NCBI GenBank assembly: GCA_030704615.1
Contig: CM060733.1
Coordinates: 63,984,001 to 64,048,000, forward strand
DNA from: Takakia lepidozioides
Taxonomy: Eukaryota; Plantae; Bryophyta
DNA length: 64,000 bases
Direction: 5' to 3'
A program made the translations under genes and the position numbers. Below, one piece after another: positions 1,255 through 46,140 of the stretch (position 1 is its first letter; each line of letters opens with the position of its first letter). Under the pieces are notes generated by a model. It was not told the DNA's origin, did not search any database, and worked only from the letters and a program-made list of their open reading frames with translations.

Positions 1255-3761
1255 ACCTAAATGAGGAGGTGAGGAATTGGCAATGTGGTCATTGACCAAA
1301 AATTTCCAGCATCCTCTTTCTGGTCCAAGAAAGCGCGGTATCCATTTTCCAAGGATGGCCACTATCTGTATTTCAGGATCCAGCACCCCCAGCCCTCCTT
1401 TTTTTTTTGGTAAACAGATCTGTATCCAAGCTACCTGTGGTCTCTTGTTGTGAACGGAGCATTCTGCTCCCTATATGAAGTTCCGGAGGAGACGTCTGAT
1501 TTCTTGCATCTCTTTAGAGTTTGGGCGCCATGAGGAGGCATAGTACCATAGACCAGCTGAATGAATCTGATTCACAACTAAGGCTCTTCCAACGAGAGAG
1601 AGATGTTTTGACCCCCAGTAGGTCAATTTTCTCTTTAGCTTGGTTAATGTAGAGGCAAAGATTTGCTGGTCTGTGAGGTTAATTCCAAAGGTATATCCTA
1701 ACAAGGTGGTTGTTTCGCCAGGCTAGAGCCAACTGAGACCCTGATCCACCCCCCAAGAGGGTGGTGAGCCTATAGTTGATGCCGTTAGGTCACCAACGAG
1801 CAAGCTAGAAGTTTTGTTCCAATTAATTTTGAATCCCGAGGCTTTGCAAAAGGTACGCAGAGTATGTCCTGCTTGGTCCAAGTTTTTTGACGTCGCTTGC
1901 AGCATTAAAATGGTGTCATCTACGAACATAGAGTCGGTCAGCTAGGTGTACTGGCCCGTGATATAGTTTGAGACCCTAAGGCCTGTTATGAATTGGTTTT
2001 GCTACAACATATATCCTAGGGTATCTGCCACTACCAGAAACAGAAAGGGTGAGAGGGGACATCCCTGTCTAACCGATCGCTGAAGAGGGAAGGAAGAAGA
2101 CAAGTGGCCATTTACAGTAACCCTACTGGATGAAGAAGTAAGAAGAATCTTAACCCACTTGCAAAAAGAATGAGGGAAGCCAAGTTTTACCAGGGCTGCA
2201 AGCAAGTAAAACCATTCCACCCGATCGAAAGCCTTTTCAAAATCCAAGAGAAGAAGGGCAATGGCTTGATTGGTCCTTAGGGCATAGTCTGGGATTTCCT
2301 GTGCAAGGAGGAGGTTGTCCAGAATATACCAGCCTTTAATAAATCCTGTCTGGTTGGGCCGAATAAGGGATGGTAGAAGAGGTTGAAGTCTAAGGGCGAA
2401 AGCCTTGGCTATGATTTTGTAGGCGACATTCAGAAGGGTTATAGGGCGGTAATTCAAAATATTCGTTCTATCCCCCTTTTTGTACAACAAGGTAATTACC
2501 CCTTGAGCCATTGAAGGTGACGTCTGACCTTGCTGAAACAGATGATTGGCCATAGCTGTAAAATCCCCTAAAATCTCTGGCCACAATGCTTTATAAAACT
2601 CAACAGAAATGCCATCTATACCAGGTGATTTGTTGTTCTGCATCTTAGATAGAGCTTCTTCTAATTCCAAGTCAGAGAAGTCTCCCTCAAGCTGCGCGGC
2701 ATATTCAGGAGAAAGCATGGAAGGGGTGTGAATCAAACAGGCTGTCTGGTCATGAGAAGGATCTAGGGAGGTGCTGTCACTGTGGAAAAGGTGCTGGAAA
2801 TGGCCACCATCAAGGGTTGCCATCGATTTAGGTGTTGTGTTTGAGATCCCCGATGGTTGGGCAACAAGTTCAGAGATGGTTTGAGAAGCTCTTCTCAATC
2901 TGGTTTTGTCGAAGAAGTATTTTGTCATCTTTTCCCCTTTTGTTGACCAGTTAACCCCCGCCTGTAACTTCCACTTTCTCTCCTGGATTTTGTGGTGAAT
3001 GTCAAGATTGTTCCTGGCTTGGACATAAGTTTTGTAAGTATCGTCATCGCAACGACTGGATTCCAATGCATATTGGCATACTCTGAGGCATTTAGATAAG
3101 GCCCTAACCTTTTTCTTTCGGACGACTGCTAATTCTCGGCTTATTCTTTGGCTTTTTGTATTGACCGTTTTTAGCCTGGCCAGGAAGAGCTCAGTTGGGT
3201 TTAGGTCTGGGTTTCCAGCTTGAGACCAAGCCTGCAGAAGACCCTGTTTGAAGGAGGGTCATTTGAGGAGGATATTATTCAGCTTGTAGAGGCCTCTGCC
3301 CCGTCTGCATGAATGAGGGATTGAGATAGAAAGGGTGATTGGTGCATGGTCAAATCCCAAAGGAATGGGTTCCTGCGGGGCTCTTTTAGAGAATTGTACC
3401 AAATTGAGGGAAAGGTAAGCTCTGTCAAGACGAGCCATACTAAGGTCGGTGAGGGTTCTATTATTGGACCATGTAAAGGTGATATTGGATGCTTGACCGA
3501 AAACAAGTGCTGCCTCCTTGAGATTATGTGTTTGAGTTGCGCAAAATTGCAATCTGCCAGGTATCCAAATATCTTTTGCTGCGAGAAAGGGCTGTAAAGA
3601 GGGGGATAACAACATCGTTGTCCCCCCTTTGGTGCCTGAAGAGGTTGGTTTCCAAAGAGAGTTTGTTAAAGGCCATAGATAGTTTTGATTCTCAGCCTTT
3701 TGAGAGATGAAGGGTCACATCCAAGGCCCCCGATGTTCCAGGAATGAAGGTTAAAGGTCAT
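1255..3761 (-). pseudogene. L1-like LINE ORF2 (APE endonuclease + reverse transcriptase), disrupted and 3'-truncated
   Basis: Starts MTFNLHSWNIGGLG at 3761; APE C-terminal motifs FTWSN..ARLDRAYL..DHAPI (ORF 3259-3615); RT motifs KSPGIDG, YRPITLLN, LLDFEKAFDRV, RQGCPLSP (2002-3066), FVDD (1723-1929), GGLGVLD (~1390). Stops, frameshifts and an apparent deletion in APE. Confidence 0.93.
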
Positions 3762-4201
3762 TGGTAGGGTATGGAGGGCCTAGACTGGAAGCCAGATTTG
3801 ATAGCCCTTTGGTACAATATACGAATTTTACCCTATGATCCCTAGGTCGCATCGAGTTGACCCAAATGAGGTTGTCTGGGGGTTTGCGGGTTTTGTTGTG
3901 GATGGTTATGAATACACCCCTAGCTCTGCATGGATATTGGATGTCTGGTATTGGTTGAAACTGCTCTGTTGAAACAGTGGAAATAGTAACAGCCTGGGTA
4001 GTGACTCCAGCCGGGAAAAAAGCAGCTGAGAACAGGTGCTGGAGCTCTGGATATCTTTGGAGAAGAGAACCATCCAAAGGAAGATTCCCAGAGGGAATGA
4101 TGTCAAGCAAATTGCATGCCGGTAGGATGTGTCTCCTTTCTTTATTCTGGCTGAGATGCTTACTTTTACCACATAAAATCCAACATCTGTTAGTATTTCC
4201 T

Positions 4202-4359
4202 AATTGAAGCTGGTAAATGAAACAGGGGAGGGTGAGGCGGGCACCTGAATAGGGGAGGGTAGAGGGGTAGGTGTTAAAACCCTAGGTGGAGAGGTGACTT
4301 GCGAGCTGGCCTGAGAGATGAGTTGAGTGGAGACCGGGATTGGTGGGGGCGATATTTGT
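4202..4359 (-). pseudogene. C-terminal Pro/Ser-rich part of LINE ORF1, separated from the rest by the Gypsy insertion
   Basis: Removing 4360-16169 joins ...PAVETLQ in frame to ISPPPIPVSTQLISQ...SFTSFN*. Confidence 0.7.
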
Positions 4360-4718
4360 TGTCAAGTTAAATAAGCACAGTGTGAAAACAGCTAGAATAA
4401 AACTAGTTATTTGTAGTTAACACTTGGATTTAGGTCAAGTGTTAAATCAGGTGTCAAGTTTAGTTTGACACCTGGTCCGTCTTATCTTCACGAGAGCGGC
4501 AGTCGCGCGGCTCATCTTTCTCGAGTTGAGCCTGCGCGACCGAGCTCCTGTGTGCGTTTAGATCTGAGTTTACTCATGATGGGAGTGTAGGTTGTTGTGG
4601 GGTGGAGTCCCCATAGCTTGGGGTGCCCCTGGCTCGACTACTGTTTTAAAGAGTGATGGTTTTGGATTTCACATTGTTTCTTGTGTGGAGAGCAGTGTCA
4701 TTTGTTAGCTTTCTTATC
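4360..4718 (+). repeat. Terminal repeat A1 (359 bp)
   Basis: Matches 15719-16077 with two transitions seen by eye. Confidence 0.97.
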
Positions 4719-4733
4719 ACTCGAGAAAGATGA
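4719..4733 (+). promoter_or_regulatory. Putative self-priming primer binding site
   Basis: ACTCGAGAAAGATGA lies directly after A1 and is the exact reverse complement of 4512-4526; no TGG-type tRNA PBS is present. Confidence 0.75.
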
Positions 4734-6778
4734 CCTCTTACCTGTGAGTGCAAGGTAGGAGTTGAGGGTTAGCACTTGTACGATTACCTGTGTGTAAGTA
4801 GTGCTTAGTTTTAGAAGCTTAGAAGAAAAAAAAAAAAACAAAACAAAATATGCAGGTTTCGATCAGCGTTGGTTCTGGCATGAGGCCGCCGGGCATGATG
4901 GAGCTACACTGCATGGAAGCAGCCTTTGTTTTGGTCGGTGAGGAGACATCATGGAGTAGCAGCGATTGGCCATTGGGAAACTGACCAAGTGCGAGACTTA
5001 AAGGAGGAGCCTGTGATCGAGCAGATGGGTAGAACTCCCGTGCCTGGAGATGGCCGGGCTGCTCGCCTTAGTTCGATGTGCACAGACCAGTGTTAAATTA
5101 GAACCAGGACAGACCAGAAGCGGTCAGGAAAGGCAGCGGAAGAGCAGGTGGAGCTGGTGTAGCGGAGCCAGTTGAAGGAGGAGCTGTAAATCTGCTCCCT
5201 CCAGTAAATGCAGCGCCGGCAGGTAGAGCATGGCGCAGCGAGCTGGTTGAAGGTGCAGGGCCCGAGAGAGAAAGCCTAGCACAAAGCGATGGAGAACGGG
5301 GAGCCCATTGCTGGCATATCATCAACACTGCAAAACCAGGAGTCTCACAAATCTTCATGCTACTTGTGATTGTGGCTGGAAAGCTGCTTTCACCTGGTCG
5401 ATTATCTGCATAAGCAACCAACTTTCTGACAAAAAGGGTTGTTGGGGGCATTGTTGATTTCGGAGAGTGCAAGGTGCAAAGTCGTTTTCGTTTTTTAAGT
5501 GCTTCAGGTTTGTACAAAGCCAAGTAGCTGTTGCTGCCTTGCACCTTGGGTCCACCATTTTGATGTGGAAACTGGTGGAAAGTCGAATGGTGGTTCACAA
5601 CCCAGCTTTCAACTCAGCACACTGCCCGAGTCCAAGATTGTGGCGATACAGGTCAAGGGAGCTCCAGCTCTATTTGTCTCATCATTGAACACTTCCAACT
5701 GATCACTTGCCTCTACTGTCATTTCGGCGTCAAGGGTACTTACTTCTGCACAGGCGAGCAGGGGAGGAAATGCGAAGACTCGTAGCAGGAGAAGCAATGC
5801 TGACGGATGAGGCCAGCGGACGAGAGCTTCCAAGGGTTGATGGAGAGGCGGTTGAAGGAGGCTGCAGATTGAGTTCCACTTTACTGAGGCAATCGCAAAT
5901 TCCTGTAGAGACTTGATAACTATATGATTGTCTCTCTTATACTGGAGCTGATGCAGATGGACCCAGGCCTTGGGTCTACATGCTGAGCATGGTTCACTTT
6001 CTTTTTCCTGGCAGTGAAGTCGTCTGTGCCTTGTGGGGGTGGTGACGGGGCAATCTGGTGCCTGTTGTCGCCGATCCCTGACCTGTAGAATGCACACAAA
6101 AGCAAACACGAGCAGTAACAGGAAGGCGGAAACCATTCTAAGCCAACAATAATCGTTGGCGAGAGATGCGAATTAGACCAAGTTGATGGAACTTCAAGCT
6201 GGTCTTGGCTTTGGATTCCATGCAAAGACGGCCACATCACAGCAGGCCGCCTGTCCATAAGCCATGAAGGTGCTGCGCAGTGCATCTGCTCTTGAAATCG
6301 CCCCAATTCCTGGTTTGTAGTCTCTAGGTCTCGAGGAGGCAGGCCCACGCGCAGAGAAAGCAAATCGTGATACCCCACCCAACTGAGGTCGAGTGTTGGA
6401 ATTAACGAGCTCTTGGTGCCTGGAGAATCCTGGAGGGGAACGACCTCGGGAACTCGTAGATAACCTGGGAACAGGTTGTAATGGCAAAAGCGTTTTGGTG
6501 TTAAAAAAAAAAAAAACTTTTTTTTTTGATCTAATTTAAATGTTTAAAGAGCCTGGTTGGTCATATCTTTGTCAAATGAGCTCCGTTTGACTCAGTTTTT
6601 GAGGGGATATCTGCAGAAAGGGGAAATCTACCTATCTAGACCTGGTTTCTGTTTTTGGGACTCTGCTAAAAATCTATGGAATTTTTAGAGTGTGAGTGTG
6701 CCATGAAAGATCCACAATCCTGTCTCTAGAACCTGTGCTGGTCTATATGAGAGACAAATTGGTGGATGTACTCCTTGC

Positions 6779-7528
6779 ATGGCTGGGGGAAATGAGGACG
6801 TAATTGAAGGGCAGGTCTCTTCTCTTAGTCTGTGCACACAAGGGGACAGGATTTATGTTTCCCAAGGAACTCAGACTGATTTGAGTGGAGAACAGTTGGA
6901 CGAGTTGATTGCATACTGGGAGTCAGGCATTAGCAGTAGACAACAGACTGCTGTAGTTGGCATTGAGGGCCTCAATATCGCCTTGGACAGTCAGAACTCT
7001 GTTGGAGCCAGCAGTTCTGCAGCTGTAGGTGAAATACCAAAGTGGGTGAAAGCTAGGCTTGGAACACAGCCAAAGACAGCCCCGGGGACCAAGGTGTTCA
7101 GTCACAAGGCCGTGGTGTACTGGAGCAGAGGAGCAGGAGCTACACAAGTTTGTGCAATCAGACATGATTGCAGCCGGATACGCTCTGCACAGGGCAACCA
7201 CGAGCGGGGGTTCATCAGCAATGACATGTTTGTTGTGCGTGAAGGAGATGCAGTCATTCGCAATGAGGACACCCGCAACCGTCTCAAAGCTTTCGAGTTG
7301 AGAGACTATCAAACCCTACCTTTGTTTTCTTTAGTGTTCAGTGAGCGGGAGATAGGGGAGTATTGCTTTGTCTCTACCTGGCAGAAAGAGGAGGAGGGTT
7401 GGTTAGAGCGAGCTACTGTAGCTTGGGACAAGGTTAGTGGCAGGTTTCTGGACATAGATATACCTCCTACACCTTACCATCATGCAGAGCGAGGCACTTT
7501 GAGAGAAGTCTGGCAGTTGATAGCATAG
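6779..7528 (+). CDS. Extra ORF upstream of gag, 249 aa, unknown function
   Basis: ATG-initiated uninterrupted ORF inside the element, same strand as gag-pol; no motif recognised. Confidence 0.5.
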   Translation: MAGGNEDVIEGQVSSLSLCTQGDRIYVSQGTQTDLSGEQLDELIAYWESGISSRQQTAVVGIEGLNIALDSQNSVGASSSAAVGEIPKWVKARLGTQPKTAPGTKVFSHKAVVYWSRGAGATQVCAIRHDCSRIRSAQGNHERGFISNDMFVVREGDAVIRNEDTRNRLKAFELRDYQTLPLFSLVFSEREIGEYCFVSTWQKEEEGWLERATVAWDKVSGRFLDIDIPPTPYHHAERGTLREVWQLIA

Positions 7529-8046
7529 ATCAGGATTAGATCTTGCTTGGTCGGGCTTCTATTCTTCCCCTCCATCTCTGTACTATTTTCATTACCTTGT
7601 ACTTGTAGTTGCCAAAGCCTCTCTTGGTGGAGGCCAGTCAGTCCGGGGTTTTGGGCTGGGATATTCTGCAGGATCAGCGTTGCTGCTGGATTTTGGTGTG
7701 GGGGTGTTGATGTTTTGATTTCTTGTGTTTGGATCCCCCCAACACCTGCATGCTTGACTGTGCGCCATGTTGGTTTTGTGTGGGCGCTTGCTTTCATAGG
7801 GATTAGGCCGGATTTGATCACCGGTCAATCCTAGAGTATGCTGTCGGTGGTGAGGCTGGAGTGATGACCAGCAAGACCACCAGTGTTTCTTCTATGGTGA
7901 GGCTGGGTTGATGACCAGCCAACCATAGGAGTTCTTGCGGTGGATGCAGGTGCAGGTGCCCTGAGCCATTGGGATATGACCCTTAGACTGCAACAGGTGC
8001 CCACCCGTGTCACTATTAGATTAGTACTAGAGCCTTATAGTGTCAC

Positions 8047-9879
8047 GTGGAGGAGGTGCACATTGTGAGTGTCATTACGGAGTTACCCAAGGGTTTTGAG
8101 GGGAGTACGGCTACAAGCAGTGACAGTGAGAGTGGGGTCACAAGACGAGGTATTCGGTTCAGACCACCTTCACCGCCACCCTCAACTACTGTAGCGTCAG
8201 ACACAGACTCGGAGGCTTCATCAACAGGTGTGCACTTTCATTCGCCATTGTTGTGGGACGACATGGAGGAGATGTATGGAGCTACCAAGGGGCCTCGTAG
8301 GTACTCTGGAGCTGTGGGCACAATCGAGTTGGATGACTTTATCCAGGAGTTCGACAGCTGGTGTGATTTGCAGCAGATGCGCAATCCACAGCTATTCACC
8401 CCATTCATGGCGTGGAAGGGACTGTTCCAGCATTTGGAAGGCCCGCCTATGGACGATTACCACGAGTTCAGGCGAGGACATGAAGCAGAGATTGAGGAGT
8501 GGAGGATGTATTGGTCACCTGACTACGTCTCCATTACTCGAGGCACGACGCGACCAGTAGCTGCATCAGTACCAATAGCTCCCACTGCCAGCACTAGTAG
8601 TGGAGCAAGTAGTGCTGGTACTTCTGAAGGTGGTACCAGTTCAAAAGGTGCTTCTCCTGCCACGACTACAACACATTTGCCAAGATTCAACCCGGTGGTG
8701 GAGTTCTTCCAGGAGTTGCGGAGGAACTACCAAGGTGTACGGACAGAGAAGCTGCGAAGTTTGCAAGACTTCCAGCGCAAACCCAGTGAGAGCCTGCGAG
8801 AGGCGTACACTCGTATGAGGCGCTTGATAAGTGTGACCCAAGGGGTTACTGAAGCTCAGGCAATCCAGTTTTGGTATGGAATTCTGGACAAGGAGCTCAA
8901 GAGAAGGGTGCGAGACGCAACCCTGTTACAAGCAGCCCAACCCACATTAGCAGATGTGTTTCTGCTGGCTGAGCGGATTGAGCTCAACATGGTGGAGGAG
9001 CGAGTTGTTACAATTGGATTTGGTAAGGACATGCCTGTACGGGGCACAGCTGTCAGCCCACAAGCACAAGGGACTGCCCAACAGCGTGGTCAGGGGGGCA
9101 AGGTTGCCCAGCCCAAGTTCCATGGAGCTTACAGGGGACCTCAGGTGCAGAGGCCCGTGGCATCTTTTGCAGGCCAACAGCAACCAGGGGTGATATGTTG
9201 GACATGTGGAGGACCCCATGTCAAGAGAGATTGCCCAGAGAGTGGCAGAAGGCCGGCACAAGCACAGCCTGCACAGTTGCAGTGTGGGCATTGTGGCAAG
9301 TATGGGCATGGAGATGCCCAGTGTTATGACTTGCATCCTGAGTTGCGCCCAGGCCAGTTCCAAGGGAACAATGGTGGCCGGGGGCGAGGTGGACCAGCCC
9401 AAAGAGGACGAGGTGGTCGGGCACGAGGTGCAGGCCAAGGGCAACCTCCACATGGCCAAGGACGCGGAGGTCAGGGTGTTGACCAAGGCATGGCCAATCG
9501 GCTTCAGCAGCTAGAGCAGAGGCTCGCTGCCATGGCTATAGCTCAGGCGGTACCGGCTCCCAGGCGGGATGGCCCACCTCCTGCTCCTGAGGGAGGAGAT
9601 ATGGGCGGAATGGGATTCATGTGCGGAGCAGCACTACCATTAGAGCAGGTGGAGTCTGCTGCAGCCGTGACTCGAGGAGCAACACGAGTTCCTGAGCCAC
9701 GAGGTGCAGAGGTGGAGTTGGATCCACAACGTGGGGAGGCAAGCCGTCAGGCAAGGCTGCCTCAGTCATTCACCTTGGCGGAGACAGTGTCAACGCCATC
9801 CATGGCACCTAGTTCTCGCCCGACTGTTACCGAGGCGGAGGTTACTATGCCATTGGGAAGAGCTACCGTGCAGCACTGA
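8047..9879 (+). CDS. gag: Gag (capsid-like region, two zinc knuckles, RGG-rich tail)
   Basis: LQDFQRKPSESLREAYTRMRRL resembles the retrotransposon gag motif; CWTCGGPHVKRDC and CGHCGKYGHGDAQC knuckles. Confidence 0.9.
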   Translation: MEEVHIVSVITELPKGFEGSTATSSDSESGVTRRGIRFRPPSPPPSTTVASDTDSEASSTGVHFHSPLLWDDMEEMYGATKGPRRYSGAVGTIELDDFIQEFDSWCDLQQMRNPQLFTPFMAWKGLFQHLEGPPMDDYHEFRRGHEAEIEEWRMYWSPDYVSITRGTTRPVAASVPIAPTASTSSGASSAGTSEGGTSSKGASPATTTTHLPRFNPVVEFFQELRRNYQGVRTEKLRSLQDFQRKPSESLREAYTRMRRLISVTQGVTEAQAIQFWYGILDKELKRRVRDATLLQAAQPTLADVFLLAERIELNMVEERVVTIGFGKDMPVRGTAVSPQAQGTAQQRGQGGKVAQPKFHGAYRGPQVQRPVASFAGQQQPGVICWTCGGPHVKRDCPESGRRPAQAQPAQLQCGHCGKYGHGDAQCYDLHPELRPGQFQGNNGGRGRGGPAQRGRGGRARGAGQGQPPHGQGRGGQGVDQGMANRLQQLEQRLAAMAIAQAVPAPRRDGPPPAPEGGDMGGMGFMCGAALPLEQVESAAAVTRGATRVPEPRGAEVELDPQRGEASRQARLPQSFTLAETVSTPSMAPSSRPTVTEAEVTMPLGRATVQH

Positions 9880-10189
9880 CACCTACTACCAAGGCTAGTG
9901 CAGCCGGTGTGTTATTGGGAGCAGCCACCTCTGTGTGTCAAGCCCCACTGTTCTCGGCGACCATGATTGCGACGCCGGGAGTGAGACCAGCTGCAGTGTT
10001 CAGACTAGCAGCAACACTCTGCGAGAGTGGAGAGGTCACTTCATCTTCTGCGGAGTTAGTGGAAGGTGTAGTGGCAGAGGGATCCTCGGATTTGAGGGTC
10101 AAGACTGCCACGGCAGCGCCCTGGCAAGCTGCAGCTGCCAGATTGACGGAGCTGCCAGCTAGGCCAGCCTTTGAGCGCGCCATGGTGAC

Positions 10190-10600
10190 ACCTGGAGTTG
10201 TCTTGTTAGACAACCAGGGAGGCATTTTCACTTTGAGTGGACCGGCAGGCAAGCAGTACCGGCCACTGCGGGTCTTGTTGGACTCAGGAGCTCAGCCACT
10301 GATGTTGGGCAGAGCTGCTATTGCAGGTTTGGGCCTCATGGAGGCGGATATGGAGCCTTGTCCTTTCCAGATACAGACATCTCTGGGAGGATCAGAGCAG
10401 GCTCGCGGCATGACATGGCATCAGTGGCTATTAGACTGCAGCCGGATCATCCTGTAGATGGCTCAGTGATGCGAGCCAAGGCCATTGTGACAGACGCGGT
10501 CTCTTACGATGTCCTCGTTGGTGGGGCAGTGTTATACCCCATGGGCTTCACCCTGGATTTCTGGGAGGAGTCAGCATCCTACAGGCCTGGATGGCAGTCA
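10190..10600 (+). CDS. Aspartic protease domain of pol (one frameshift near 10420)
   Basis: RVLLDSGAQPLML catalytic motif at ~10281; YDVLVGGAVL C-terminal motif in the next frame. Confidence 0.85.
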
Positions 10601-10990
10601 GGGGATGGTCGCCGTGCACAGCTCCCTGTGACATTCATTGGGGGTATTGCAGCTGCTCAGCGGGGCAAGATGCCAACACTAGCCGCCTTCACAGCTGCAG
10701 TCAGCTGGCCTGGAGAGTTGCTGGAAGGCAATGCCCATGCAGAGGATGTGCCACCTCCAGCAGAGCAGGATGACATGCATGGTACGGCGGAGTTGCCTGC
10801 CATGGTTGCTCACACTCCGTTGTGGGGTACGAGCAAGGATTTGCAGCACGCTGCTGATGGACGGGTGCAACAAGCTTGGGTAGAAGCTTTTGTACCGTCA
10901 GGAGAGGAGGAGAGTGCGGTGATTGTACCAGGGCCACCTCAGTTGTCGCCATTGGACACCACACCTCTTGTGTGGCAGCGACCGGATGAA

Positions 10991-11945
10991 GGCATATGCC
11001 TTCTGGACTTATTTGGCGGGATCAGCACTGGATTGGCTGCAGTGCTGCAGGCAGGTGTACGAGTTCGACGTTACCTGTATGTGGAGAGGGATGAGACTGC
11101 ACGACGCGTCTCACTGCGCCATGTTGCTCAGATGGTGCAGCAGCACCCTGAGTTGTTGCCGGTGTCTGCAGTTCGTGGATATCAGCAGGCCTTGCCAGCA
11201 GACATTGCGTTGCTGGGGGCGCAGGATTTGGAGCAGGTTGGCTCCATTGATCTGGTAGTGGCAGGTTGGCCCTGCCAAGGGCATTCATCAGCCGGGCATG
11301 GCAATGGATTGCGAGACTCGAGGACGGGTCTGTTTTGGGAGATGGTGCGGATTTTGCGCCACTTGCAGCTTCATTAGGCTGTATCTCCGGCATACATCTT
11401 GGAGAATGTGCCACTGATGGGTGATTCTCGGGCCAGGGTGATGGCCAGTGTGCATCAAGTCCGGTCGTGGCTTGGGTCAGCAGTGTTGCTAGATGCAGCT
11501 GCAGTGGGGTCACGGGCTCATCGTCCACGACTATGGTGGACTAACTTGATGCCACCCGCACTGCTCAAGCGTGCATTTGATGGGGTGCAGCGGCCAGCAC
11601 ACCTCACCGTGGATGGCATTTTGGACACAGGAAGGCAGTCTCAACGTGTGAGACACGATGACCGTTCGCCTTTGGCAGTGGTCAACAGGGTGGGTCAACC
11701 ACGAGCAGCATTACCTACACTGCTCAGCTTCCCAGGATCCTATGCTTTTCGGGATGGTGGACCTGGCCTCCTGTGGGATGCTCAGTTGCAGCAGTTAGTG
11801 GAGCCTAATGCCGACGAGCGAGAGCGGGCTATGGGGTTTTCCACTGGGACCACGGCGGTGCCTTCTCTTTCTGAGGCATCACGTCGTCAGGTGTTGGGGC
11901 AAGCAATGGATCTCAATTGCTTGACCTGGATTGTCAGCTTGGCTA
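10991..11945 (+). CDS. DNMT3-like C5 cytosine DNA methyltransferase domain embedded in pol (in-frame TAG at 11375-11377)
   Basis: Motif I LLDLFGGISTG, II YVERD, IV DLVVAGWPCQGHS, V TGLFWEMVRIL, VI YILENV, VIII AHRPRLWWTNL, IX ERERAMGF, X RRQVLGQAM, in canonical order. Confidence 0.93.
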
Positions 11946-12399
11946 TGGCTGAGCAACGTAGAGTGCGGAGTGCACTTCCCTTGACGGTCTCTCTGCCTAC
12001 CGAGACGGTACAGGCAGCGAGTGGGGGCGAGCCGGTGAGGACCACGAGGTGTAGACATCCATGGCACATGTGGGAGGTGCTCGAGGTTCAGAGGGAGTTG
12101 GCAGCGAAGGCAGCTGTGATGGATGAGGTTGGGGATTCTTCTCGGGATGAGAGGTCCTCAATGATGAGATGATGGGGCAGGATGAGGCCTTGTCATTGAC
12201 TGAGCAGGAAGGGGGTACTGTTCAAGAGGTTGCAGCATAGCAACCACGGGACGCGTCCTCTACCTCTAAGCCCACTGGACTTAAGGTTGCAGTTACGGAG
12301 GACAATTGGGAGCCTGATATTGGACCCATTGTCACCGGAGGAGAGAGACGACGTATACGGCGGTTCCTGAGGGCTTATAGGAATTGCTTTGCCTTCAGT

Positions 12400-13190
12400 T
12401 TGAAGGACTTGGGAGCACTGAAGGGTCAAGAGATCCGTATTGAGTTGGCCACTGACACGCCAATCTTTCGGAGACCCTATAGATACAGTGACATGGAGAG
12501 GTCTTTGATTCAGATGAGGACTCAAGATCTCTGGGAGGCAGGTTTGGTGGAGCTCTCTGGTGGAGAGTATGCTTCAGCCACAGTGATGCCAGCTAAGAAG
12601 GATGTCTATGGCAATTGGACGGAGAGACGTATGTGCGGTGATTACCGGCCTGTAAATCGTCAGACCAAGTCCGATAGGTATGCCATGCCAACACCAGAGG
12701 AGATCTTTGATGCCATTGGGCATTCCAAGGTCTTTAGCACGTTGGATTTACGATCCGGATATCACCAGTTGCCGATCAAGGAGGCGGATAAGCAAAAGAC
12801 GGCATTCTGGGGGATCAATGAGCACGGGAAGGATTGCCTATACCAGTGGCGGTTCTTACCATTTGGGCTTAAAAACGCTCCGCTGAGTTTCAAAGAGTCA
12901 TGGACAGGATTCTAGCAGGGGTGGAGTTTGCTCGGTGCTACATAGATGACATCATCATCTTTAGTGCTACGGTGGAGGAGCATGAGAGACACCTTCAGGG
13001 GGTATTTGAGCGCTTGAGGACGCAAGGATTGAAGTTACATCCGGGCAAGTGCAAGTTTTTCCACAACCAGATTGAGTATCTGGGTCACATGATATATCCT
13101 GGAGGATTGGGGGTACAACAGACTAAGGTAGAGTCCATTGCACAGGTTCCACGCCCCACGGATGTGAGCCGAGTTCGAGCTTTCATGGGT
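12400..13190 (+). CDS. Gypsy reverse transcriptase (frameshifted)
   Basis: RMCGDYRPVN, FSTLDLRSGYHQ, KTAF, LPFGLKNAP, CYIDDIIIFS, YLGHMI. Confidence 0.95.
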
Positions 13191-13261
13191 TAGCAAACTA
13201 TTACAGACGGTTTGTTAAGGGATTTAGTGCCATTGCAAAGGCTCTAACCAAGCTGACCAAG

Positions 13262-13740
13262 GTGGACCAGGAGTGGCAGTGGGAAGATGAGCAAGAACAA
13301 GCTTTTCAAGAGCTCAAGGCGAGGTTGACCTCGGCGCCCATCTTGAGACGACCTATCAGGGGGCGTCCTTTTCAGCTGCATACAGATTGGAGCATGCTGG
13401 GGCTTGGAGCGGTGCTCACACAGGTGGATGATGAGGGAAGAGAGTTCGTAGTGGCTTATGCTAGCCGCTCGAACAATGCTGCAGAGTCTAAGTATAGCTC
13501 ATATGAGGGAGAATGCTTAGCTGCAGTGTGGGCCGTGGCACACTTCAGGTGCTATCTATACGGCAATCTCTTCACCCTTGTCACGGATCACCAACCACTC
13601 AAGTGGTTGATGGAGTCAGACAAGCTTACGGGGAAGCTTGCACGGTGGGCACTCATCCTTCAAGAGTATGACTTTCAGGTGGTGCATCGACCGGGTTTGG
13701 TCAATCGAAATGCAGATGGGTTGAGTCGCAATCCATGCAC
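13262..13740 (+). CDS. RNase H domain
   Basis: FQLHTDWS..GLGAVL, VAYASR, ECLAAVW, TDHQPLKW, NADGLSR. Confidence 0.93.
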
Positions 13741-14099
13741 GAGCCAGCAGGATGACACTGGAGCTCGGTGGCATGGTGAGACGGACGAGGAGATGGTGCC
13801 CGGATGGCATGCATCTGCATTTCTGTGTATCTTGGCAGCGGAAGGCCAGGTTGGACCTACAACAGGGATGACTGTAGATCAAGTGTCTGAGGACCCTGAG
13901 GCCAGCAATGAGCAGGGTGGCGCCAAAGATATACATGAGGATTCAGTTGTGTTGGACTACCTCCGCAGTGGAGACACGACAGCCACTATGACTGCCAAGG
14001 AGAGGGATCGGATCCTACAACGAGCCAAGAGGTTCAGGTGGGAGGGGACACACCTGCTTCGAGTGTGGGAGGATGGTCGAGTGAGGATTGTGCCTCACC

Positions 14100-15200
14100 C
14101 AACACAGCGGGCACGGTTAGTGCGGCATGCCCATGAGGAGTTGGGGCATTTTGGGGTGCGACGCACTCATAGTCTACTGCAAGGGCAGTATTGGTGGCGT
14201 GGTATGCACACAGAGGTGCAACAATTTGTGGCTAGGTGCATGGTGTGTGACAGGGTGCGTGCTTCATTCAACGCCCCTACTCCACAATTGCACCCTCTTC
14301 CGATCATGGGATTGGGCTACAGGTGGAGTCTTGACTTCGCAGGGCCGTTGCCACTGACCATGCGCCACAACAAGTACGTGTTGGTGATGGTGGAGCACTT
14401 CTCCAAGTGGATTGAATTGGTTCCATTGCCTGATAAGGCTAGTGAGGGAGCTGCGTATGCATTCCTGGATTGTGTGCTTAGCCGATTCGGTGCTCCAGCT
14501 GAGGTACTCACGGACCAAGGGAGAGAGTTCTTGGGGGAGTTTCAGGCTTTGTGTGACAAGGCCTTGATAGACCACCGCACCACTTCCGGGATCATCCTGA
14601 AGCCGATGGCTTGGCAGAGAGAGTTGTTCAGACAGTAAAGAGGGGTTTGCGCAAGTATGGCTTGCAGAAGGGACACCTAGGGATTGGGACCTTCAATTAT
14701 CCTGGTTAGCCATGGGCTACAGGTTCAGCAAGCAAGCATCACTTGCCTCCTTCTCACCATACTTTCTTCTCTTTGGCCGAGAGCCGGATTTGCCTACATC
14801 CATTCGCAGAGAAGCTGCTACAGTTCTTAACCTTGACGATCCGGACGTGTGGGCACGTGCATGTGAGCAGCGTGCAGAGTTGTTCAAGAGAGTCATGCCC
14901 ATGGCTTTCGAGAACCTTGCCATTGCACAACACCGTGATACGTTGAGGTATGCTACCATACGTGGTGGGGGCTATCGTCCTGGGGTTCGGAGATTCAACC
15001 CTGGTGACTATGTCTATCTGCAGCAGACTGCTCCTACGACCCTGGATGTGACTGCAGGACGTGTTATTTTGAGGGTTCGAGAGGTCTTGCCCTCAGGCGT
15101 CTTGGTCTTGGAGGGTCGGGATGGCATAACTTGGAAGGACCATGTGCGTAATTGTGCGCCATGTCACCTTCCGAATGTCGATGGCAGGATTGACCCAAAC
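14100..15200 (+). CDS. DDE integrase (HHCC zinc finger + catalytic core; two 1-bp frameshifts)
   Basis: HEELGHFG..CMVC; WSLDFAGPLP; VEHFSKW; LTDQGREF; SPYFLLFGR; the frame is confirmed by the sister copy at 24860-25678. Confidence 0.95.
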
Positions 15201-15227
15201 CTGGCAGTGGTATCTGCAGGTTTGAGG

Positions 15228-15371
15228 TGCATGTTGTGTGGGTCTGCTAAAGGGGCAGCCACCATGCTGGTGTGCGATCAATGCTCTAGAGGTTGGCATA
15301 TGGGATGCTTGACTCCACCTCTTGAGATGGTTCCGGATGGGGATTGGTTATGTCCACATTGCATTGGATAG
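15228..15371 (+). CDS. PHD finger at the integrase C-terminus
   Basis: CMLC..MLVCDQCSRGWHMGCLTPPLEMVPDGDWLCPHC is a complete C4HC3 pattern. Confidence 0.95.
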   Translation, partial: CMLCGSAKGAATMLVCDQCSRGWHMGCLTPPLEMVPDGDWLCPHCIG

Positions 15372-15620
15372 TGGGAGTGGATACAACCATGGAAGGCTAA
15401 CAAGAAACGCAAGGCCCAGCTACTAGGAGACCTTGAACACACGAGGTCCTGGCTCAAGTTCACAGATTGCAAGATGACGACTAACGATGGGGCTACTCTT
15501 GTACCCGGCCTCTTGGTCTATAGAGTTTGAGTACAATAGGGACAGTGATAGAGGACTTAGTACGGCTGTGGCTATTACATCTTGTAGCTATCTGGAGGTA
15601 GAGGGACCTATCCACCAGCT

Positions 15621-15629
15621 AGGGGGGCG
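15621..15629 (+). promoter_or_regulatory. Polypurine tract
   Basis: AGGGGGGCG immediately before AT-TGTGG, the start of repeat B1. Confidence 0.75.
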
Positions 15630-15716
15630 ATTGTGGCAGACTACTTTATTGTGCATATATGTGTGGTGTGGTTTGGACAGCGATGTAGTTGTGTAGCGAT
15701 ATGTATGCGCACGACA
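15630..15716 (+). repeat. Terminal repeat B1 (87 bp)
   Basis: Identical by eye to 16079-16165. Confidence 0.97.
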
Positions 15717-15718
15717 GC

Positions 15719-16077
15719 TGTCAAGTTAAATAAGCACAGTGTGAAAACAGCTAGAATAAAACTAGTTATTTGTAGTTAACACTTGGATTTAGGTCAAGTG
15801 TTAAATCAGGTGTCAAGTTTAGTTTGACACCTGGTCCGTCTTATCTTCACGAGAGCGGCAGTCGCGCGGCTCATCTTTCTCGAGTTGAGCCTGCGCGACC
15901 GAGCTCCTGTGTGCGTTTAGATCTGAGTTTACTCATGATGGGAGTGTAGGTTGTTGTGGGGTGGAGTCCCCATAGCTTGGGGTGCCCCTGGCTCGACTAT
16001 TGTTTTAAAGAGTGATGATTTTGGATTTCACATTGTTTCTTGTGTGGAGAGCAGTGTCATTTGTTAGCTTTCTTATC
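15719..16077 (+). repeat. Terminal repeat A2 (359 bp)
   Basis: Copy of 4360-4718; separated from B1 by GC. Confidence 0.97.
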
Positions 16078-16078
16078 T

Positions 16079-16165
16079 ATTGTGGCAGACTACTTTATTG
16101 TGCATATATGTGTGGTGTGGTTTGGACAGCGATGTAGTTGTGTAGCGATATGTATGCGCACGACA
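16079..16165 (+). repeat. Terminal repeat B2 (87 bp), right end of the element
   Basis: Copy of B1; ends GACA and is followed by the TSD TTGT. Confidence 0.97.
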
Positions 16166-16169
16166 TTGT

Positions 16170-18322
16170 AGAGTTTCGACGGCAGGGTTGAAGTTGCTGC
16201 TTTCCTCTTGAGTCGAGGTGTTTGCTGATTCCTCCTGAGAATCCAAGGAATTGCTTGGGGATCCGAATAGCTTGTTCCTGTTGATGTGCTCCCTGGTTCT
16301 TTGCATTTCCATTCTGTAATTGTCGTGGTCAACCTCGGAATCCAGGTGAGCTTCAAGCAGCTGAAATCCACTGACCAATGTGTCCTGATTACGGATTTGC
16401 AATTTATGGCTTCCTCCCGGAGCAGACAAACCATTCTTGGTAAGTCGAAATTGCCTCTATTGGTGGCGGTGCAGAGTAGATTTCTGTATCCTCTACAAGG
16501 GCAAGAATATGGGTTGAAGGCTTGACACTTAGCCCTGGGTGTTCCTCCAAATATGCTCCCCACGAGATTTTTGTAAATGGTGATAGCGAATAGTGGGGCT
16601 ACGACTTGTGGAAGAATTCCTGAATTTTGTATTTGAACAAAATCTGGGAGGGTTTGATTGTAGGAAATGTTTGATGTATGCAGTAGTAATCCAAAGTAAT
16701 TCCACACATTCGAAATCATCTGATGTGATTAGAATAGCTGGGGGTATACTTTTCCGGAATATGAGAGGAGTGACGCAGGAAGCCTTTGGTGTTTCAACCA
16801 TCTCCAATGCTGAGCAACCCTTGAGATCCAGGTGAGGGAATGAGCAGGTTTGGAGACTAGCGTTGGCAAAGGTGGAGTTGCATGCGATGCCGGTGGTAAT
16901 TTTAGGAAAGGAGTTGCTGGTTGGAAGTGTCAATCTGACTGATCTCAGCTGCTGTCCATCCTGTACCTTTGCCTTCCCTTTTGAGGTAGCCACCAGTTGT
17001 TGTTGTGCATTCTGCTTTGCCTTCCCCTTGGAAATTATACCCTCCGTTTGATGATGAGCCAATAATTCTGCCTGCATAGGATCCCTGCTGCTGTCTCCTT
17101 TGGTAGTATTATGTTTCTGAGTTGCCGAGGATCGTTGGGAACCTTTTGAAGGGCCTGGGCAGCTTGAGCGTTTGGTGGAAGCATGGAGCCTACGGTGGGG
17201 TTGCTCATTTCCTGCCTTTGATTCGCAGCCGCTGTTGAGGGTACCCCCTGTGCTGCCGCTGAAGGTTGAGGGGCACAAAAGGCTGATGTCTCTTGCGTTT
17301 GGCTGTGGGGCAGTCGATTTTAAAGTGGCCAAGTTGGCCACAGTTGAAGCAGGCTGCATAGGCAGTGTCTTCTATGAACTGAATCGTGAAATAATTACCA
17401 TCCTCATCTATTGGCAATTTCACAAATTGCAGCAGAACATCCTCATCTGGCATCATCAACACAAACTTGGCACATCTTGTCCATGGAGGCGTGATGCAAT
17501 AGTCACTGATCTCCATGCTGGGTCCTGCCTTAAGATTTGTGTACACATTTGGGGATCAAATACTGCCAAACACCCAAGGTATGATCCAAAATGATTCGCA
17601 ATGTCCGCCAGGTTGACCAGATATTGATCTCGGATGTAAGGAACAGAGACAATGCGTGGGCCCCAAAGTTTACCATTCCTGTTTCCCATCTTGGATGACC
17701 AAGGGAATATGTTAACATTGTATCCCTTTGTGTGAGGGTTGAAAAGCAAGGCCTGGTTTGCTGCTTCTTGGGTTTCAAAAAGGATTGAAAAGAAACCTCG
17801 ACCCTTTTCATGGCAAAACTATTGACGCAGTTCTGCAGGGCCGCCAAGATGTTTGATGGCCCAGTCTCTAACAATAGCTCTATCCACTTTTGTCCCTGGA
17901 AAGTGAATGAGGATGCCAGACTCCTCCATGGTTGTAACTCTTTTTTGTAAATCTGGGATGTTCATATTGATCATTGGGTAGTCCCTGTCCAAATCATCTT
18001 GATTGAGAATGTTTTCTTCCACCCATTCGGCTGGTGGAGTTTCCGAAATGGGTGGGTTTGAGCAGTTTGGAACAGTTTGAGGTGAATCCACCTTGGGGAA
18101 TTTAAGGAAGGGTTGGGGAGGAGAGAGGATTGAAGTGGAAAGGAGGGGGGGGGGGGGGGGGGGTCTTACAGACCCGTTGGTCGTAGCAATCCTGGAACGC
18201 TCTTGATGTGCGAGGTAGAAGCCTGTCCCAGATGAGAGGTTGGCTCTTCTCTGTCCATTTTGGAAACCCCGTCGAGCCTCCATTGATTCCCTGCTGCGAA
18301 ACTGGTTGTTCCCAGGAGCCAT
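16170..18322 (-). pseudogene. L1-like LINE ORF1, 5' portion, frameshifted
   Basis: Chain of minus-strand ORFs; zinc knuckle ACFNCGQLGHFKIDCP (~17300-17355); lies upstream of, and co-oriented with, ORF2 at 1255-3761. Confidence 0.8.
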
Positions 18323-18749
18323 TGCAATAATCAAACTAGGAAGAATACCGTAGCACTGGAAAAAAACCACTGATGAAATGGGGTCCAAAGAACTAATGCG
18401 AGGAATAGGGAAGAAAAGCTGGGAAGGTCTCTGAGAAGGCGACCTCCTTCCAGATTAGGGATGATGCATGTAACTGTGCGAGCGATGAAAGGACGAGGGT
18501 TGACAAGATTTACAGCTGAAGGAACTATTTGTGGAAAAAAATAATGAAAAAACTTAAACAGCATGTCAATGGAAATCTGTGCATGGGGGGAGATGCATAA
18601 TGTGATCTACAGTGGCCACGGGGCTGAGCAGGGCCTAAAACAAGCTCCAAAAAGGACGAGATGACCGTTGGGTGTCGTCTCGCAGCTCCGCCATCGGCCC
18701 GCTCCCCCTCAAAAATAATTCTTATTAAAAAAAACTGAAAAATTGGGAA

Positions 18750-18970
18750 GCCGGAAGTCTGTGCCGACTTCTCATATAATATAATATTTAAAAGTCTGTG
18801 CCGACTCAAAATATAATATAAAACTGAAAATTAGGAAGCCGGAAGTCTGTGTCGACTTCTCAAATAATAATAATAATTCGGAAAATAGGCAGCCCCAAGT
18901 CTGTGCGGACTTCTCCAAAAAAAAAAAAAACGGAAAGTAGGCAACCGGAAGTCTGTGTCGACTTCTCAAA
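18750..18970. repeat. Five copies of a quasi-palindromic motif AAGTC-TGTGYC-GACTTC (TE subterminal-type repeats)
   Basis: Copies near 18754, 18792, 18842, 18897 and 18948, with A-rich spacers. Confidence 0.75.
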
Positions 18971-19229
18971 AAAAAGGTACCGACGCCCAAAAATATGGGG
19001 AATTCCCGAACCTAGCTTTGCATCCGAACCTAACCTGATTGTTCTATGATGAGGGAAAATCGTGCACTTGTAAAACTGAAAAACAGGTTCGGATGGTCGA
19101 AAACCTTGAAATATTTGTAGAAATATGTGAAAAATATTCTGTTTTGGGGTTCTGCTCATGCTTTTTGGTGCTCACTGCTCATAGAAAAACAACCCCCCTG
19201 CAAATAAAGGAATTCAACTGGTAACAGAG

Positions 19230-23044: not shown

Positions 23045-24858
23045 ATGTTTGTGGTGCTATTGCAAGGTGACTCCAATGCGCAAGTGGGCAAAGGGCTCCA
23101 TCAGGACGATATCATTGGGTCTTCTGGTGAGGACGAGCTGAATTCTAATGGCAGACGGTTAATTAACTGTCTGGAAGAGCTTCAGCTTTTGACCTTGAAT
23201 AACAAGACAAGAGGTGACCAAGTGCAGTGGACTCGTGAGAAATCCCAAACTGGGGAACGTTCCATTGTGGACTATATCATAATGGACAAAAATTTGTTCC
23301 CCGAGTGTTTCTCTTCGATGATCGACAGAACTGATATTGGTACCTTTGACCACTTCCTGGTTTGGACTGAGATCAAAAGGTGTTTTCCCAACACCAGAGT
23401 AGAAGAGATTCTCAAGGACCTGGACCTGGATCCGCAAGTCTTGACCCTGCTGGATAAATCCGACTTAGAGGCTGTAGTGTCCAAAGCCATGTCTGTTGCC
23501 ATGAGATTGTCTGATGAAAATGAAGTTAGGCAGAAAACTTCCCTGAACTTGTTTCTAGTCAGTGACATGGGGGAGGACATCTTGGATGACCTCAAGGGTC
23601 CACCCACTCTCGGCACTAGACTGAAATTTAAACTGAGGGAAGGAAGCCTACCTTTGAACAACAAACAGAAGCAGAGAGGAAAGGGGGAGTGCACTTCCCA
23701 TTGTGTGGGCAATCTGAAGACAATACTCATTTTCTGATACACCGTCTGGGGTTCTCTCACCAAATGGGCAAAGCTCTGGGGCTCACTAAATTTTCCACTG
23801 CACAGGGGTCAACTCTGAGGTTAAGAAAACCATGCTTTCTCGCGTTATTAGACCTGCCTTGGAGTACGGATCTGCTATATGGGTTGATAACTCCAACCAG
23901 GCTAAGTCTCTAGAATCCATTCAAGTGGGGGCGCTTAAGGAGTGTATGTCAGCATGCTCCAAAACAGCCAATGTGGCTGTTCGGGGTGAGTTTGGCATTC
24001 CATCATTAAGCTCCCGACGAGATGAAATCAAGGTCAGATGGTGGGGTCAGCTGCAACATATGCCCAACACCAGATATCCTAAGTTAATCGACTCTATATC
24101 TTGGAAACCCTAAACCCTGTCAAACAGGCGAAGTCCTGGCAGAAGAGAGTAGAAAAGATTCTCAAGGACCTTGACCTGGATCCGCAAGTCTTGACCCTGC
24201 TGGATAAATCTGACTTAGAGGCTGTAGTGTCTGAAGCCATGTCTGTTGCCATGAGATTGTCTGATGAAAATGAAGTTAGGTAGAGAACTTCCTTGAACTT
24301 GTTCCAGTCAGTGACATGGGGGTGGACATCTTGGATGACCTCAAGGGTCCACCCACTCTTGGCACTAGACTGAAATTTAAACTCAGGGCAGGAAGCCTAC
24401 CTTTGAACAACAAACAGAAGCAGAGAGGAAAGGGGGAGTGCACTGCCCATTGTGTGGGCAATCTGAAGACAATATTCATTTTCTGATACACTGTCTGGGG
24501 TCTCTCACCAAATGGGCAAAGCTCTGGGGCTCACTAAATTTTCCACTGCACAGGGGTCAACTCTGAGGTTAAGAAAACCATGCTTTCTCGCGTTATTAGA
24601 CCTGCCTTGGAGTACGGATCTGCTATATGGGTTGATAACTCCAACCAGGCTAACCAGGGCAAGAAGCCTACCTTTGAATAGCAAACAGAAGCAGAGAGGA
24701 AAGGGAGAGTGCAATTGTCCATTGCGTGGGCAACCTGAAGACAGTATTCATTTTCTGATACACTGTCCGGGGTTCTCTCACCAAAGAGACGCTCTCTTCA
24801 ATTCTATCAAGGGAATTGTGCCTATACCCCTGTTTACCAACTTTGAAAGTCTCGAGGC
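23045..24858 (+). mobile_element. Scrambled non-LTR retrotransposon fragments (APE C-terminal half and post-RT region) with an internal tandem duplication
   Basis: GDSNAQVG, NSNGRRL, WTR, SIVDYII, FDHFLV; RPALEYGSAIW; CPLC..ED..HFLIHCP; 23397-23905 is repeated at 24147-24653. Confidence 0.85.
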
Positions 24859-24859: not shown

Positions 24860-25678
24860 GTGTTGGTGATGGTGGAGCACTTCTCCAAGTGGATTGAGTT
24901 GGTTCCATTGCCTGACAAGGCTAGTGAGGGGGCTGCGTATGCATTCTTGGATCGTGTGCTTAGCCGATTTGGTGCTCCAGCTGAGGTACTCACGGACCAA
25001 GGGAGAGAGTTCTTGGGGGAGTTTCATGCTTTGTGTGATAAAGCCTTGATAGACCACCGCACCACTTCTCGGGATCATCCTGAGGCCGATGGCTTGGCAG
25101 AGAGAGTTGTTCAGACGGTGAAGAGGGGTTTGCGCAAGTATGGCTTGCAGAAGGGACACCTAGGAGATTGGGATCTTCAGGTTCCTTGGTTAGCCATGGG
25201 CTACAGGTTCAGCAAACAAGCATCACTTGCCTCCTTCTCACCATATTTCCTTCTCTTTGGCCGAGAGCCGGATTTGCCTGCAGCCATTCGTAGGAACACT
25301 GCTCAAGTCCTTAACCTTGACGATCTGGACGTGTGGGTACGTGCATGTGATCAGCGTGCAGAATTGTTCAAGAAAGTCATGCCCATGGCTTTTGAGAACC
25401 TTGCCATTGCACAACACCGTGATACGTTGAGGTATGCCACTATACGTGGTGGAGGATATCGTCCTGGGGTTCGGAGGTTTACCCCTGGTGACTATGTTTA
25501 TTTGAAACAGACTGCTCCTACGACTCTGGATGTTACTGCAGGGCGTGTTATTCTGAGGGTTCGAGAGGTGTTGCCCTCAGGGGTCCTGATCTTGGAGGGT
25601 CGGGACGGCATGACTTGGAAGGACCATGTGCGTAATTGTGCGCCATGTCACCTTCCCAATGTCGATGGCAGAGTTGAC
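24860..25678 (+). mobile_element. Second, partial copy of the DNMT-Gypsy integrase
   Basis: Near-identical protein to 14378-15194, in one open frame; stops just before the PHD. Confidence 0.95.
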
Positions 25679-26880: not shown

Positions 26881-27281
26881 CTACTAACCCACATTGCGAA
26901 AGAAAAGCCCACTGGGAAGGAAAGAAAGCCCACTTACCAGTGGAGGTGCACGGGCAGCTACCTTGCGCCGTTTGCCCGTGTCGGGGTTCGGCATTGGAGC
27001 TGGGCCTCTCTTTTCGGCAGAGCTCTCCACCTCCACCTCCTCATCCCTTGCCAATGGCTGGTAGTCGTCGGTGTCCGTATCCCCCGACGACGAGGACGAG
27101 CTGCCCACACTTGGACTTCGCCGCAGGTCCTTCATGGCCAGTCGGGGGGCTCCGACGCACAGAGGTCGTGGGGTCAGCTGCTCTCTTTGCAGGCGAGGGA
27201 GTTGCAACGCCGGTTCTCCGCCCCTCTTTGTCGGCAGACATGGACCACGAGAGGACAAGGCAAGACAGGCAGGGAAGAAAA

Positions 27282-45751: not shown

Positions 45752-46140
45752 CTCTCATTTTTTAATATTAGGGTCTTGAATGCACATATGGGCCCCGCCA
45801 GTACGGCCCATGGGGTGAGCTCATAAGCCCACCGCCCATTCACCGGGTCAGCCAGATTATGAAATTTTTCTAAGTCATCTACCGCGGCGGACCTTCTAGC
45901 GGACTAGGCAGACCCTCTAACAGACTGACTCCAACCTTCTAGCGGACAGACAAACCCTCTAGCAGACCGACAAGCGGACTGACAGACCCTCCAGCAGACC
46001 GATGAGCGGACTGGGCAAACCCTCCTCTAGGAGACCGGCAAACCCTCCAGCAGACCGATGAGCGGACTGGGTAAACCCTCCTCTAGGAGACCGGCAAACC
46101 CTCCAGCAGACCGACAAGCGGACTAGCAGACCCTTCGACA
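45752..46140. mobile_element. Second end of the same repeat family, with GC-rich subterminal tandem repeats
   Basis: About 54-bp unit CAGCAGACCGATGAGCGGACTGGG.AAACCCTC repeated across 45950-46135. Confidence 0.65.

Follow-up and report, generated by a model that had tools for sequence, protein, structure and literature searches.

A Ty3/Gypsy-type retroelement of Takakia lepidozioides with split direct repeats probably integrates through a palindrome inside its long terminal repeat

In the bryophyte Takakia lepidozioides, we analysed a stretch of 64,000 nucleotides of the forward strand of contig CM060733.1 (assembly GCA_030704615.1, positions 63,984,001 to 64,048,000; this whole stretch is called the window), which carries at positions 4360-16165 a Ty3/Gypsy-type retroelement with the repeat layout A-int-B-gc-A-B, in which "int" is the internal region and A and B are two parts of the long terminal repeat (LTR). 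A palindrome at the internal B/A boundary is, very probably, the site that defines the element ends throughout the family. From the sequence comparisons given below, we propose that this is a Gypsy element of the self-priming type whose DDE integrase cuts the internal palindrome in complementary DNA (cDNA) with likely head-to-tail joined ends, a reading to which we give a probability of about 0.7; whether a closed circle is the true substrate stands at about even odds. The departure from the standard rule of LTR integration is real, family-wide and probably clade-wide, and it appears that the layout has been glimpsed once in print and that the mechanism is undescribed.

The argument is based on the following parts of the element and its flanks (positions in the window):
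4356-4359, plus strand: left copy of the target site duplication (TSD), TTGT
4360-4718, plus strand: A1, left terminus, starting with TGTC (right palindrome half); presumably part of U3, R and U5
4512-4526, plus strand: complement of the primer site, predicted 5' end of a self-primer RNA
4719-4733, plus strand: primer-binding site (PBS) of the self-priming type; no tRNA-type site seen
15621-15629, plus strand: polypurine tract (PPT), G-rich, preceding B1
15630-15716, plus strand: B1, presumably the first 87 nt of the reverse-transcribed LTR, ending with GACA
15713-15722, no strand: palindrome GACA-GC-TGTC, where the integrase is predicted to cut; intact in this internal copy
15719-16077, plus strand: A2
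16078, plus strand: extra T at the A2/B2 join, not present in the multi-copy contig form
16079-16165, plus strand: B2, right terminus, ending with GACA
16166-16169, plus strand: right copy of the TSD, TTGT

A preliminary description, made from the letters of the window, had reported the split direct repeats, TG..CA termini, loss of the central GC and a clean 4-bp TSD, all of which are borne out at base level by comparison of the repeats. Using blastn, A1 and A2 were found to differ at 2 of 359 nt and B1 and B2 at none of 87 nt, and at all four repeat edges no extra base matches on either side. The palindrome GACAGCTGTC occurs a single time in the window, at 15713-15722 on the B1/A2 boundary, and the termini of the element, TGTC (4360) and GACA (16165), are its two halves without the central GC. 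A primer site had also been placed after A1; it is indeed present at 4719-4733, although it is of the self-priming type and not a tRNA site, being a perfect 15-nt complement of 4512-4526 inside A (blastn). The left flank at 4341-4355 resembles the element's own PPT (a G-run and CGAT), a likeness within a LINE-like host that we take as chance.

Relatives were collected with an alignment query, which covered part of a metagenome collection and confirmed 333 loci there; the best 80 of them were taken, together with 4 loci from a viral collection. A or B was present in 40 of these 84 loci, which fall into two families, F1 (approximately 70% identity, 7 loci) and F2 (approximately 40-60%, 33 loci). 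An exact search of the metagenome contigs with 21 nt of A gave 0 matches; in the viral contigs, a query with the PHD region gave 0 matches and the alignment query gave the 4 loci, which are distant and lack the split-repeat structure. For the 5' ends, 17 loci were available, 16 of them independent, after leaving out L020 (inverted) and L081 (A start missing). All 16 start at A (13 with TGTCATG, 3 with one decayed letter), and B was found within 400 nt upstream of A in none of them; ordinary BA-int-BA copies, which the preliminary description had named as the observation that would speak against it, are thus represented by 0 of 16 5' ends with B-A. At the 3' side, 36 loci were reduced to 31 independent and 28 informative ones (3 are cut by a contig end), comprising 13 with B-gc-A-B, 12 with PPT-B-flank, 1 deleted copy ending in A-B and 2 exceptions, with an exact stop at the B end in 23 of the 28. 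L006 (3321-3602) has lost the PPT, B1 and the palindrome and carries the 3' half of A plus B directly after the PHD region; it still ends at the B end.

Among 8 independent, complete and old elements, the 4-bp TSDs contain 0, 0, 0, 1, 1, 1, 2 and 2 mismatches. At most one mismatch is therefore seen in 6/8, compared to 7.8% of 464 unrelated pairs (exact matches: 0.9% of those pairs); one of the three exact TSDs sits in a T run, and lengths of 3, 5 and 6 fit worse than 4 in these relatives. A solo A-B with a 4-bp TSD containing one mismatch lies on the minus strand of L080 (6060-6526); a different copy has its lone-B end 300 nt away from it. As had been predicted for further copies, the relatives start with TGTC, end with GACA, show A-int-B-A-B or A-int-B and have 4-bp TSDs. 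Three kinds of genomic product are accordingly seen (A-int-B-A-B, A-int-B and solo A-B), and each of them has TG..CA ends that lie at the palindrome.

The own organism was covered by public sequencing contigs, of which the sets X1, X2 and X3 come from one sample and X5, X6 and X7 from other studies. The family is very abundant in them, with a summed depth of up to about 10^6, whereas the flank reaches values between a few hundred and about 1300. Contigs leave the element at the B end in X1 (68, with 15 more one base further), X3 (42, with 13 more) and X5 (5); the agreement between these continuations is 0.42, 0.38 and 0.65 and their median length 72, 255 and 45 nt, respectively, and they are a mix of the gc-A continuation and many different flanks. 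One single-copy contig runs from PPT-B into 449 unlike letters. Before the start of B, 27, 11 and 2 contigs were found (agreement 0.53, 0.51 and 0.88 in X1, X3 and X5), PPT-like in X1 and X5, and among the 20 rows listed, with 74 further ones outside the listing, there is no loose end at the TG of B (16081), where an ordinary integration is expected to end. The A/B join is present without the extra T in 7 X1 contigs, with a summed depth of 4413 compared to 54-75 for single-copy contigs, and in 2 X3 contigs; a form with +CA and a diverged subfamily with the same A/B join were also seen.

The palindrome at the B/A boundary is identical in F1 and F2, and a version of 10-12 bp is present about 55 nt after the PPT in the more distant L014 (50% identity) and L021 (34%). 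In total, 7 matches to ACAGCTGT were counted in the 787,580 nt of the loci, 5 of them after a PPT at the B/A place; those in L016 and L040 have no such position next to a PPT and were disregarded. In the available tails of L010, L019, L029 and L074, no palindrome was found. The surroundings of the palindrome vary: B ranges from about 55 nt (presumed for L014 and L021) to 176 nt across families, and the sequences of the cDNA ends differ (B of F2 starts with ATAC, not TG), while the palindrome is kept. Similarly, both F1 and F2 retain, in different letters, the complementarity between primer site and A, clearly so in L017, L020, L037, L039 and L057; in some old copies (L012, L022, L026, L064) the match is weak or elsewhere. 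Named relatives come from Klebsormidium, Closterium and chlorophytes, with protein P0036 of Klebsormidium at about 50% identity. A quick tree was built from 58 rows and 185 columns of the RNase H region (L074 dropped for its short match, no Tcn1 reference included); in it, the window element, F1, F2, L014, L021 and proteins of Klebsormidium, Closterium and chlorophytes form a clade of 37 rows with support of 99 (SH-aLRT). Chlorophyte PHD elements lie inside this clade, as do two Klebsormidium proteins which are not sisters of the window element; L049 and L070, both with ordinary LTR pairs, fall outside.

The origin of B2 was addressed through private variants in 9 F2 elements, using 21 minority variants other than C>T/G>A and leaving out L072 with its short B1. 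B1 and B2 of the same element share such variants 29 times, compared to 13 times on average and at most 27 times when the pairings were shuffled 10,000 times. The A/B join, moreover, differs by a few letters between copies (+T in the window, +CA in the own organism, +G or +C in relatives). Shared private variants and variation of the join together say that B2 is recopied from B1 and the join made anew, which is the expectation for reverse transcription of the LTR type with subsequent end-joining and speaks against separate inheritance of B2.

These observations can be arranged into the following cycle. RNA would start near 4512, its first 15 nt or so would prime at 4719-4733, and reverse transcription would yield B-gc-A-int-B-gc-A. 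With the primer covering 4719, the cDNA would end at 4718, making the usual A/B join a flush join of cDNA ends. The ends would be blunt and would lack a usable attachment (att) site, and would be joined A to B anew in each cycle, either into a 2-LTR circle that precedes integration or while an integration intermediate is being repaired. Integrase would cut GACA^GC-TGTC after CA on both strands, leaving 2-nt 5' overhangs like those of ordinary 3' processing, and strand transfer would create the 4-bp TSD with loss of the GC. A-int-B copies could come from a 1-LTR circle, from cutting of both palindromes or from later B-B recombination, and A-int-B-A-B alone would retain the 3' copy of R required for further replication.

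A number of observations weigh against this cycle. One concerns the mirror product A-B-A-int-B, expected if a 2-LTR circle is cut at either palindrome: it was found at 0 of 16 5' ends compared to 13 of 28 3' ends with A-int-B-A-B (Fisher p=0.0013), and when the count is confined to elements for which both ends are present, the numbers are 0 and 7 (p=0.016). A 2-LTR circle cut at random is therefore too simple and the circle step as stated incomplete; either cutting favours the 5' palindrome, or the A repeats anneal and turn the mirror product into A-int-B, or the join is made during integration or by a template jump. From the initial suggestion of a circle integrated through an internal att palindrome, the palindrome is thus supported by ends, product classes and TSDs, whereas the circle would have to depart from random cutting. 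The circle, cDNA and integrase steps are all deduced from genomic products. Judged by raw distance, only 3 of 10 old elements have a B2 whose closest B1 is their own; C>T/G>A decay dominates in these elements. The last B is incomplete at 3 of 28 3' ends (2 B-gc-A-B, 1 PPT-B-flank) and 2 of 28 do not fit, L040 ending at A and L020 after 14 nt of B2. Both of these exceptional loci contain inverted pieces of A or B inside the element (L020 3661-4188, L040 6748-6908), which could stem from autointegration or later rearrangement. Since the loci of the relatives are short-read assemblies, some lone-B ends may be assembly collapses. In the own organism, the agreement before the B start is 0.51-0.53 in X1 and X3 and 74 rows of loose ends lie outside the listing, leaving room for a minority of ordinary ends, and these two sets represent one sample.

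The closest competitor, which we rate somewhat below even, dispenses with a free circle: integrase would cut the 5' palindrome of linear cDNA and insert both new ends, after which host end-joining would make the A/B join, or, in a variant, reverse transcriptase would jump from the end of A to the start of B so that the join is a template jump. It shares the internal-palindrome step with the cycle proposed above and differs from it only in when and how the join is made. The one-sided outcome follows more readily in this way, provided that one of the palindromes is favoured while the intermediate is linear or half-finished, or that the longer A repeats anneal and so mend the other cut, with A-int-B as the result; and the small additions at the join (+T, +CA, +G/+C) fit non-templated addition or end-joining. 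An added assumption is, however, likewise required for the bias, and by genomic products alone this route and the circle route are inseparable. A replication like that of Ngaro/PAT elements, with split repeats inherited, B2 and the A/B join copied from the parent and the internal B/A rebuilding the ends, is considered unlikely. It would explain the absence of A-B-A-int-B, the A/B join is uniform in the four F1 copies showing it, and an identical A-int-B-A-B layout is given in the legend on SymbioDIRS-Dnmt3 (PMC5890265). Yet B2 shares variants private to its own B1 (87/87 identical in the window), PBS and PPT are placed as ordinary LTR-type reverse transcription requires, TSDs are present and a tyrosine recombinase was not found.

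A single aberrant event, in which one 2-LTR circle of a family that is otherwise ordinary became integrated, could draw on the 2 of 28 relatives' 3' ends that are not at B and on possible ordinary ends in the own organism. Against this stand 0 of 16 ordinary 5' ends, 23 of 28 3' ends at B, the dozens of different flanks behind the B end in the own organism and conservation of the palindrome in distant relatives, so that own-organism contigs and relatives' ends effectively refute such an event and we deem it highly improbable. An assembly artefact of the window deserves even less credence. None of the contigs listed bridges this copy's own right junction between B2 and flank or contains its extra T (16078), and the several disruptions of the pol frame, in a copy whose repeats are almost identical, could reflect indels of the assembly; but the TSD is exact and the same structure recurs in independent assemblies, in several families and in a published algal element, by which an artefact is already refuted at the family level.

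The coding content and the insertion site are as follows:
2002-18454, minus strand: host, a decayed retroelement resembling a long interspersed nuclear element (LINE), multi-copy repeat; zinc knuckle right of the insertion, reverse transcriptase left
4734-8040, plus strand: leader, 3.3 kb, with unassigned open reading frames (ORFs) on both strands, none of which has a Pfam hit above the cut-off
8041-9879, plus strand: gag-like ORF, 612 aa, CCHC-like motifs (Retrotrans_gag E=0.0016, below cut-off; backed by tblastn)
10150-10415, plus strand: protease region (tblastn to P0017 and P0029; weak Asp_protease_2)
10991-11950, plus strand: C5 cytosine methyltransferase domain in pol, interrupted by one stop (PF00145 E=2e-10; tblastn)
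12241-13190, plus strand: reverse transcriptase, in two frames (RVT_1)
13280-13669, plus strand: RNase H (Pfam)
14099-15227, plus strand: DDE integrase with H2C2 zinc finger, rve core and D/D/E motifs; frame change near 14590
15228-15362, plus strand: PHD finger at the integrase end (PF00628 E=4.5e-11)

The ORFs of the leader are 100-273 aa long; the leader of the F1 relatives is much shorter, with about 1.2 kb from A1 to the first gag match. With Pfam, no tyrosine recombinase was found at E<=0.1 in 30 ORFs of at least 90 aa, nor in the 11 ORFs scanned first, and no chromodomain was found at the C terminus of the integrase, where the PHD finger lies instead. Stops or frame changes occur in pol near 10.4, 11.4, 12.2, 12.9, 13.2 and 14.6 kb. 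Because pol is broken while the repeats are near-identical, the window copy is either a broken member that was moved in trans or the assembly carries indels. At the host site, paralogous contigs of the own organism that resemble an empty site begin at 16166.

Elsewhere in the window, a truncated second integrase piece of the same family (24860-25678) has 92% DNA identity to 14378-15194 and lacks the PHD end, B and A. A conventional contrast is provided by an ordinary LTR element on the minus strand (27281-31051) with 328-bp repeats that are 97% alike, TG..CA ends and an apparent 5-bp TSD; from its motif, we take its primer site to be of the tRNA-Met type. A decayed Gypsy pol at 51200-53700 is not part of the split-repeat clade of the quick tree. 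Arrays of repeats, tandem or dispersed, lie at 35858-37185, 18723-18973, 45945-46144 and 23396-24785, with a spacing of about 386, 54, 56 and 749 bp, respectively.

Compared to known systems, the element has the gag, the order protease-reverse transcriptase-RNase H-integrase, the DDE integrase, PBS, PPT, TG..CA ends and TSD of Ty3/Gypsy (Metaviridae). It departs from that group in lacking two complete LTRs co-terminal with the cDNA ends, since its ends fall inside the PPT-to-PBS unit. The A-int-B-A-B layout is shared with the tyrosine-recombinase retrotransposons Ngaro, PAT and TOC, from which the element differs in its DDE integrase, the tyrosine recombinase not found, the 4-bp TSD, the TG..CA ends, the PPT and a B2 recopied from B1. 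For Ngaro, PAT and TOC, a circular intermediate is presumed, and Ngaro, PAT and DIRS elements are not known to make a TSD. The resemblance is a convergence on their split-repeat layout with different chemistry.

Whether such an element had been described before was a question raised in the preliminary description, and for the layout it has: KnitGypsy-Dnmt3 of Klebsormidium nitens is said to have a DIRS-like repeat structure with Gypsy domains in the legend of Fig. 4c of de Mendoza et al. (2018, PMC5890265), and the legend of Fig. 1e gives the DIRS structure as A-coding-B-A-B, without a mechanism. Like the window element, KnitGypsy-Dnmt3 thus combines a Gypsy pol containing a C5 methyltransferase with DIRS-like repeats; termini, TSD, palindrome, priming mode and mechanism are not part of these legends, and the comparison is one by description (PMC5890265). 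One later paper mentions Gypsy-DNMT3, in passing. A literature search, in which subscription papers, theses and Repbase reports were sparsely covered, found no description of an internal att palindrome or of this mechanism in Gypsy. Self-priming by a primer site complementary to LTR-internal sequence is described for Tf1/Sushi and plant Tcn1 (PMC6317226), and the predicted complementarity is what the window element has in common with them, although unlike the chromovirus Tcn1 it has a PHD finger and no chromodomain was found. The Tcn1 elements of that survey were detected by LTR_FINDER and have, in the parts of the survey concerned, ordinary LTR pairs (PMC6317226); finders that demand paired LTRs and a TSD, as used there, would likely miss or miscall the present clade.

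Gypsy-7a_cRei of Chlamydomonas reinhardtii is reported as lab-active and PHD-bearing, and the last 8 bp of its right LTR are missing from the left one (PMC9940879), a difference which, compared by description, would fit A-int-B-A-B with a B of 8 bp. The quick tree contains a Chlamydomonas protein, P0114, which may belong to this family. It is an evenly balanced possibility that in a green-lineage clade of Gypsy elements with PHD or DNA methyltransferase (DNMT) domains (chlorophytes, charophytes, land plants) the att site has moved from the cDNA ends into the LTR, that an end-joined, circle-like cDNA is the obligatory precursor of every replication-competent copy and that Gypsy-7a, with a B of 8 bp, may belong to this clade. 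If true, the lab-active Chlamydomonas element would be a ready experimental model.

In the standard view, retroviruses and LTR retrotransposons integrate linear cDNA via att sites at its ends, and circles are by-products and a dead end. Whether circle junctions cut by integrase can be real precursors has been debated mainly from in vitro work on foamy virus and human immunodeficiency virus (HIV), whereas in the genomes studied here products of a cut at an internal palindrome are the norm in several families, with predictions that are open to test: three product classes, a conserved 10-bp site and one missing class. In vitro, the integrase of foamy virus cleaves both strands of a palindromic LTR-LTR junction after CA (PMC1180852), and HIV-1 integrase likewise cuts a palindromic 2-LTR junction (PMC1905944). 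As described in these reports, the cut after CA on both strands and the processed-like ends are those proposed here; their palindrome is the join of the cDNA ends, and cutting it restores an ordinary provirus. In the window element, on the other hand, the palindrome is internal to the LTR, the joined cDNA ends form no palindrome and a permuted product results.

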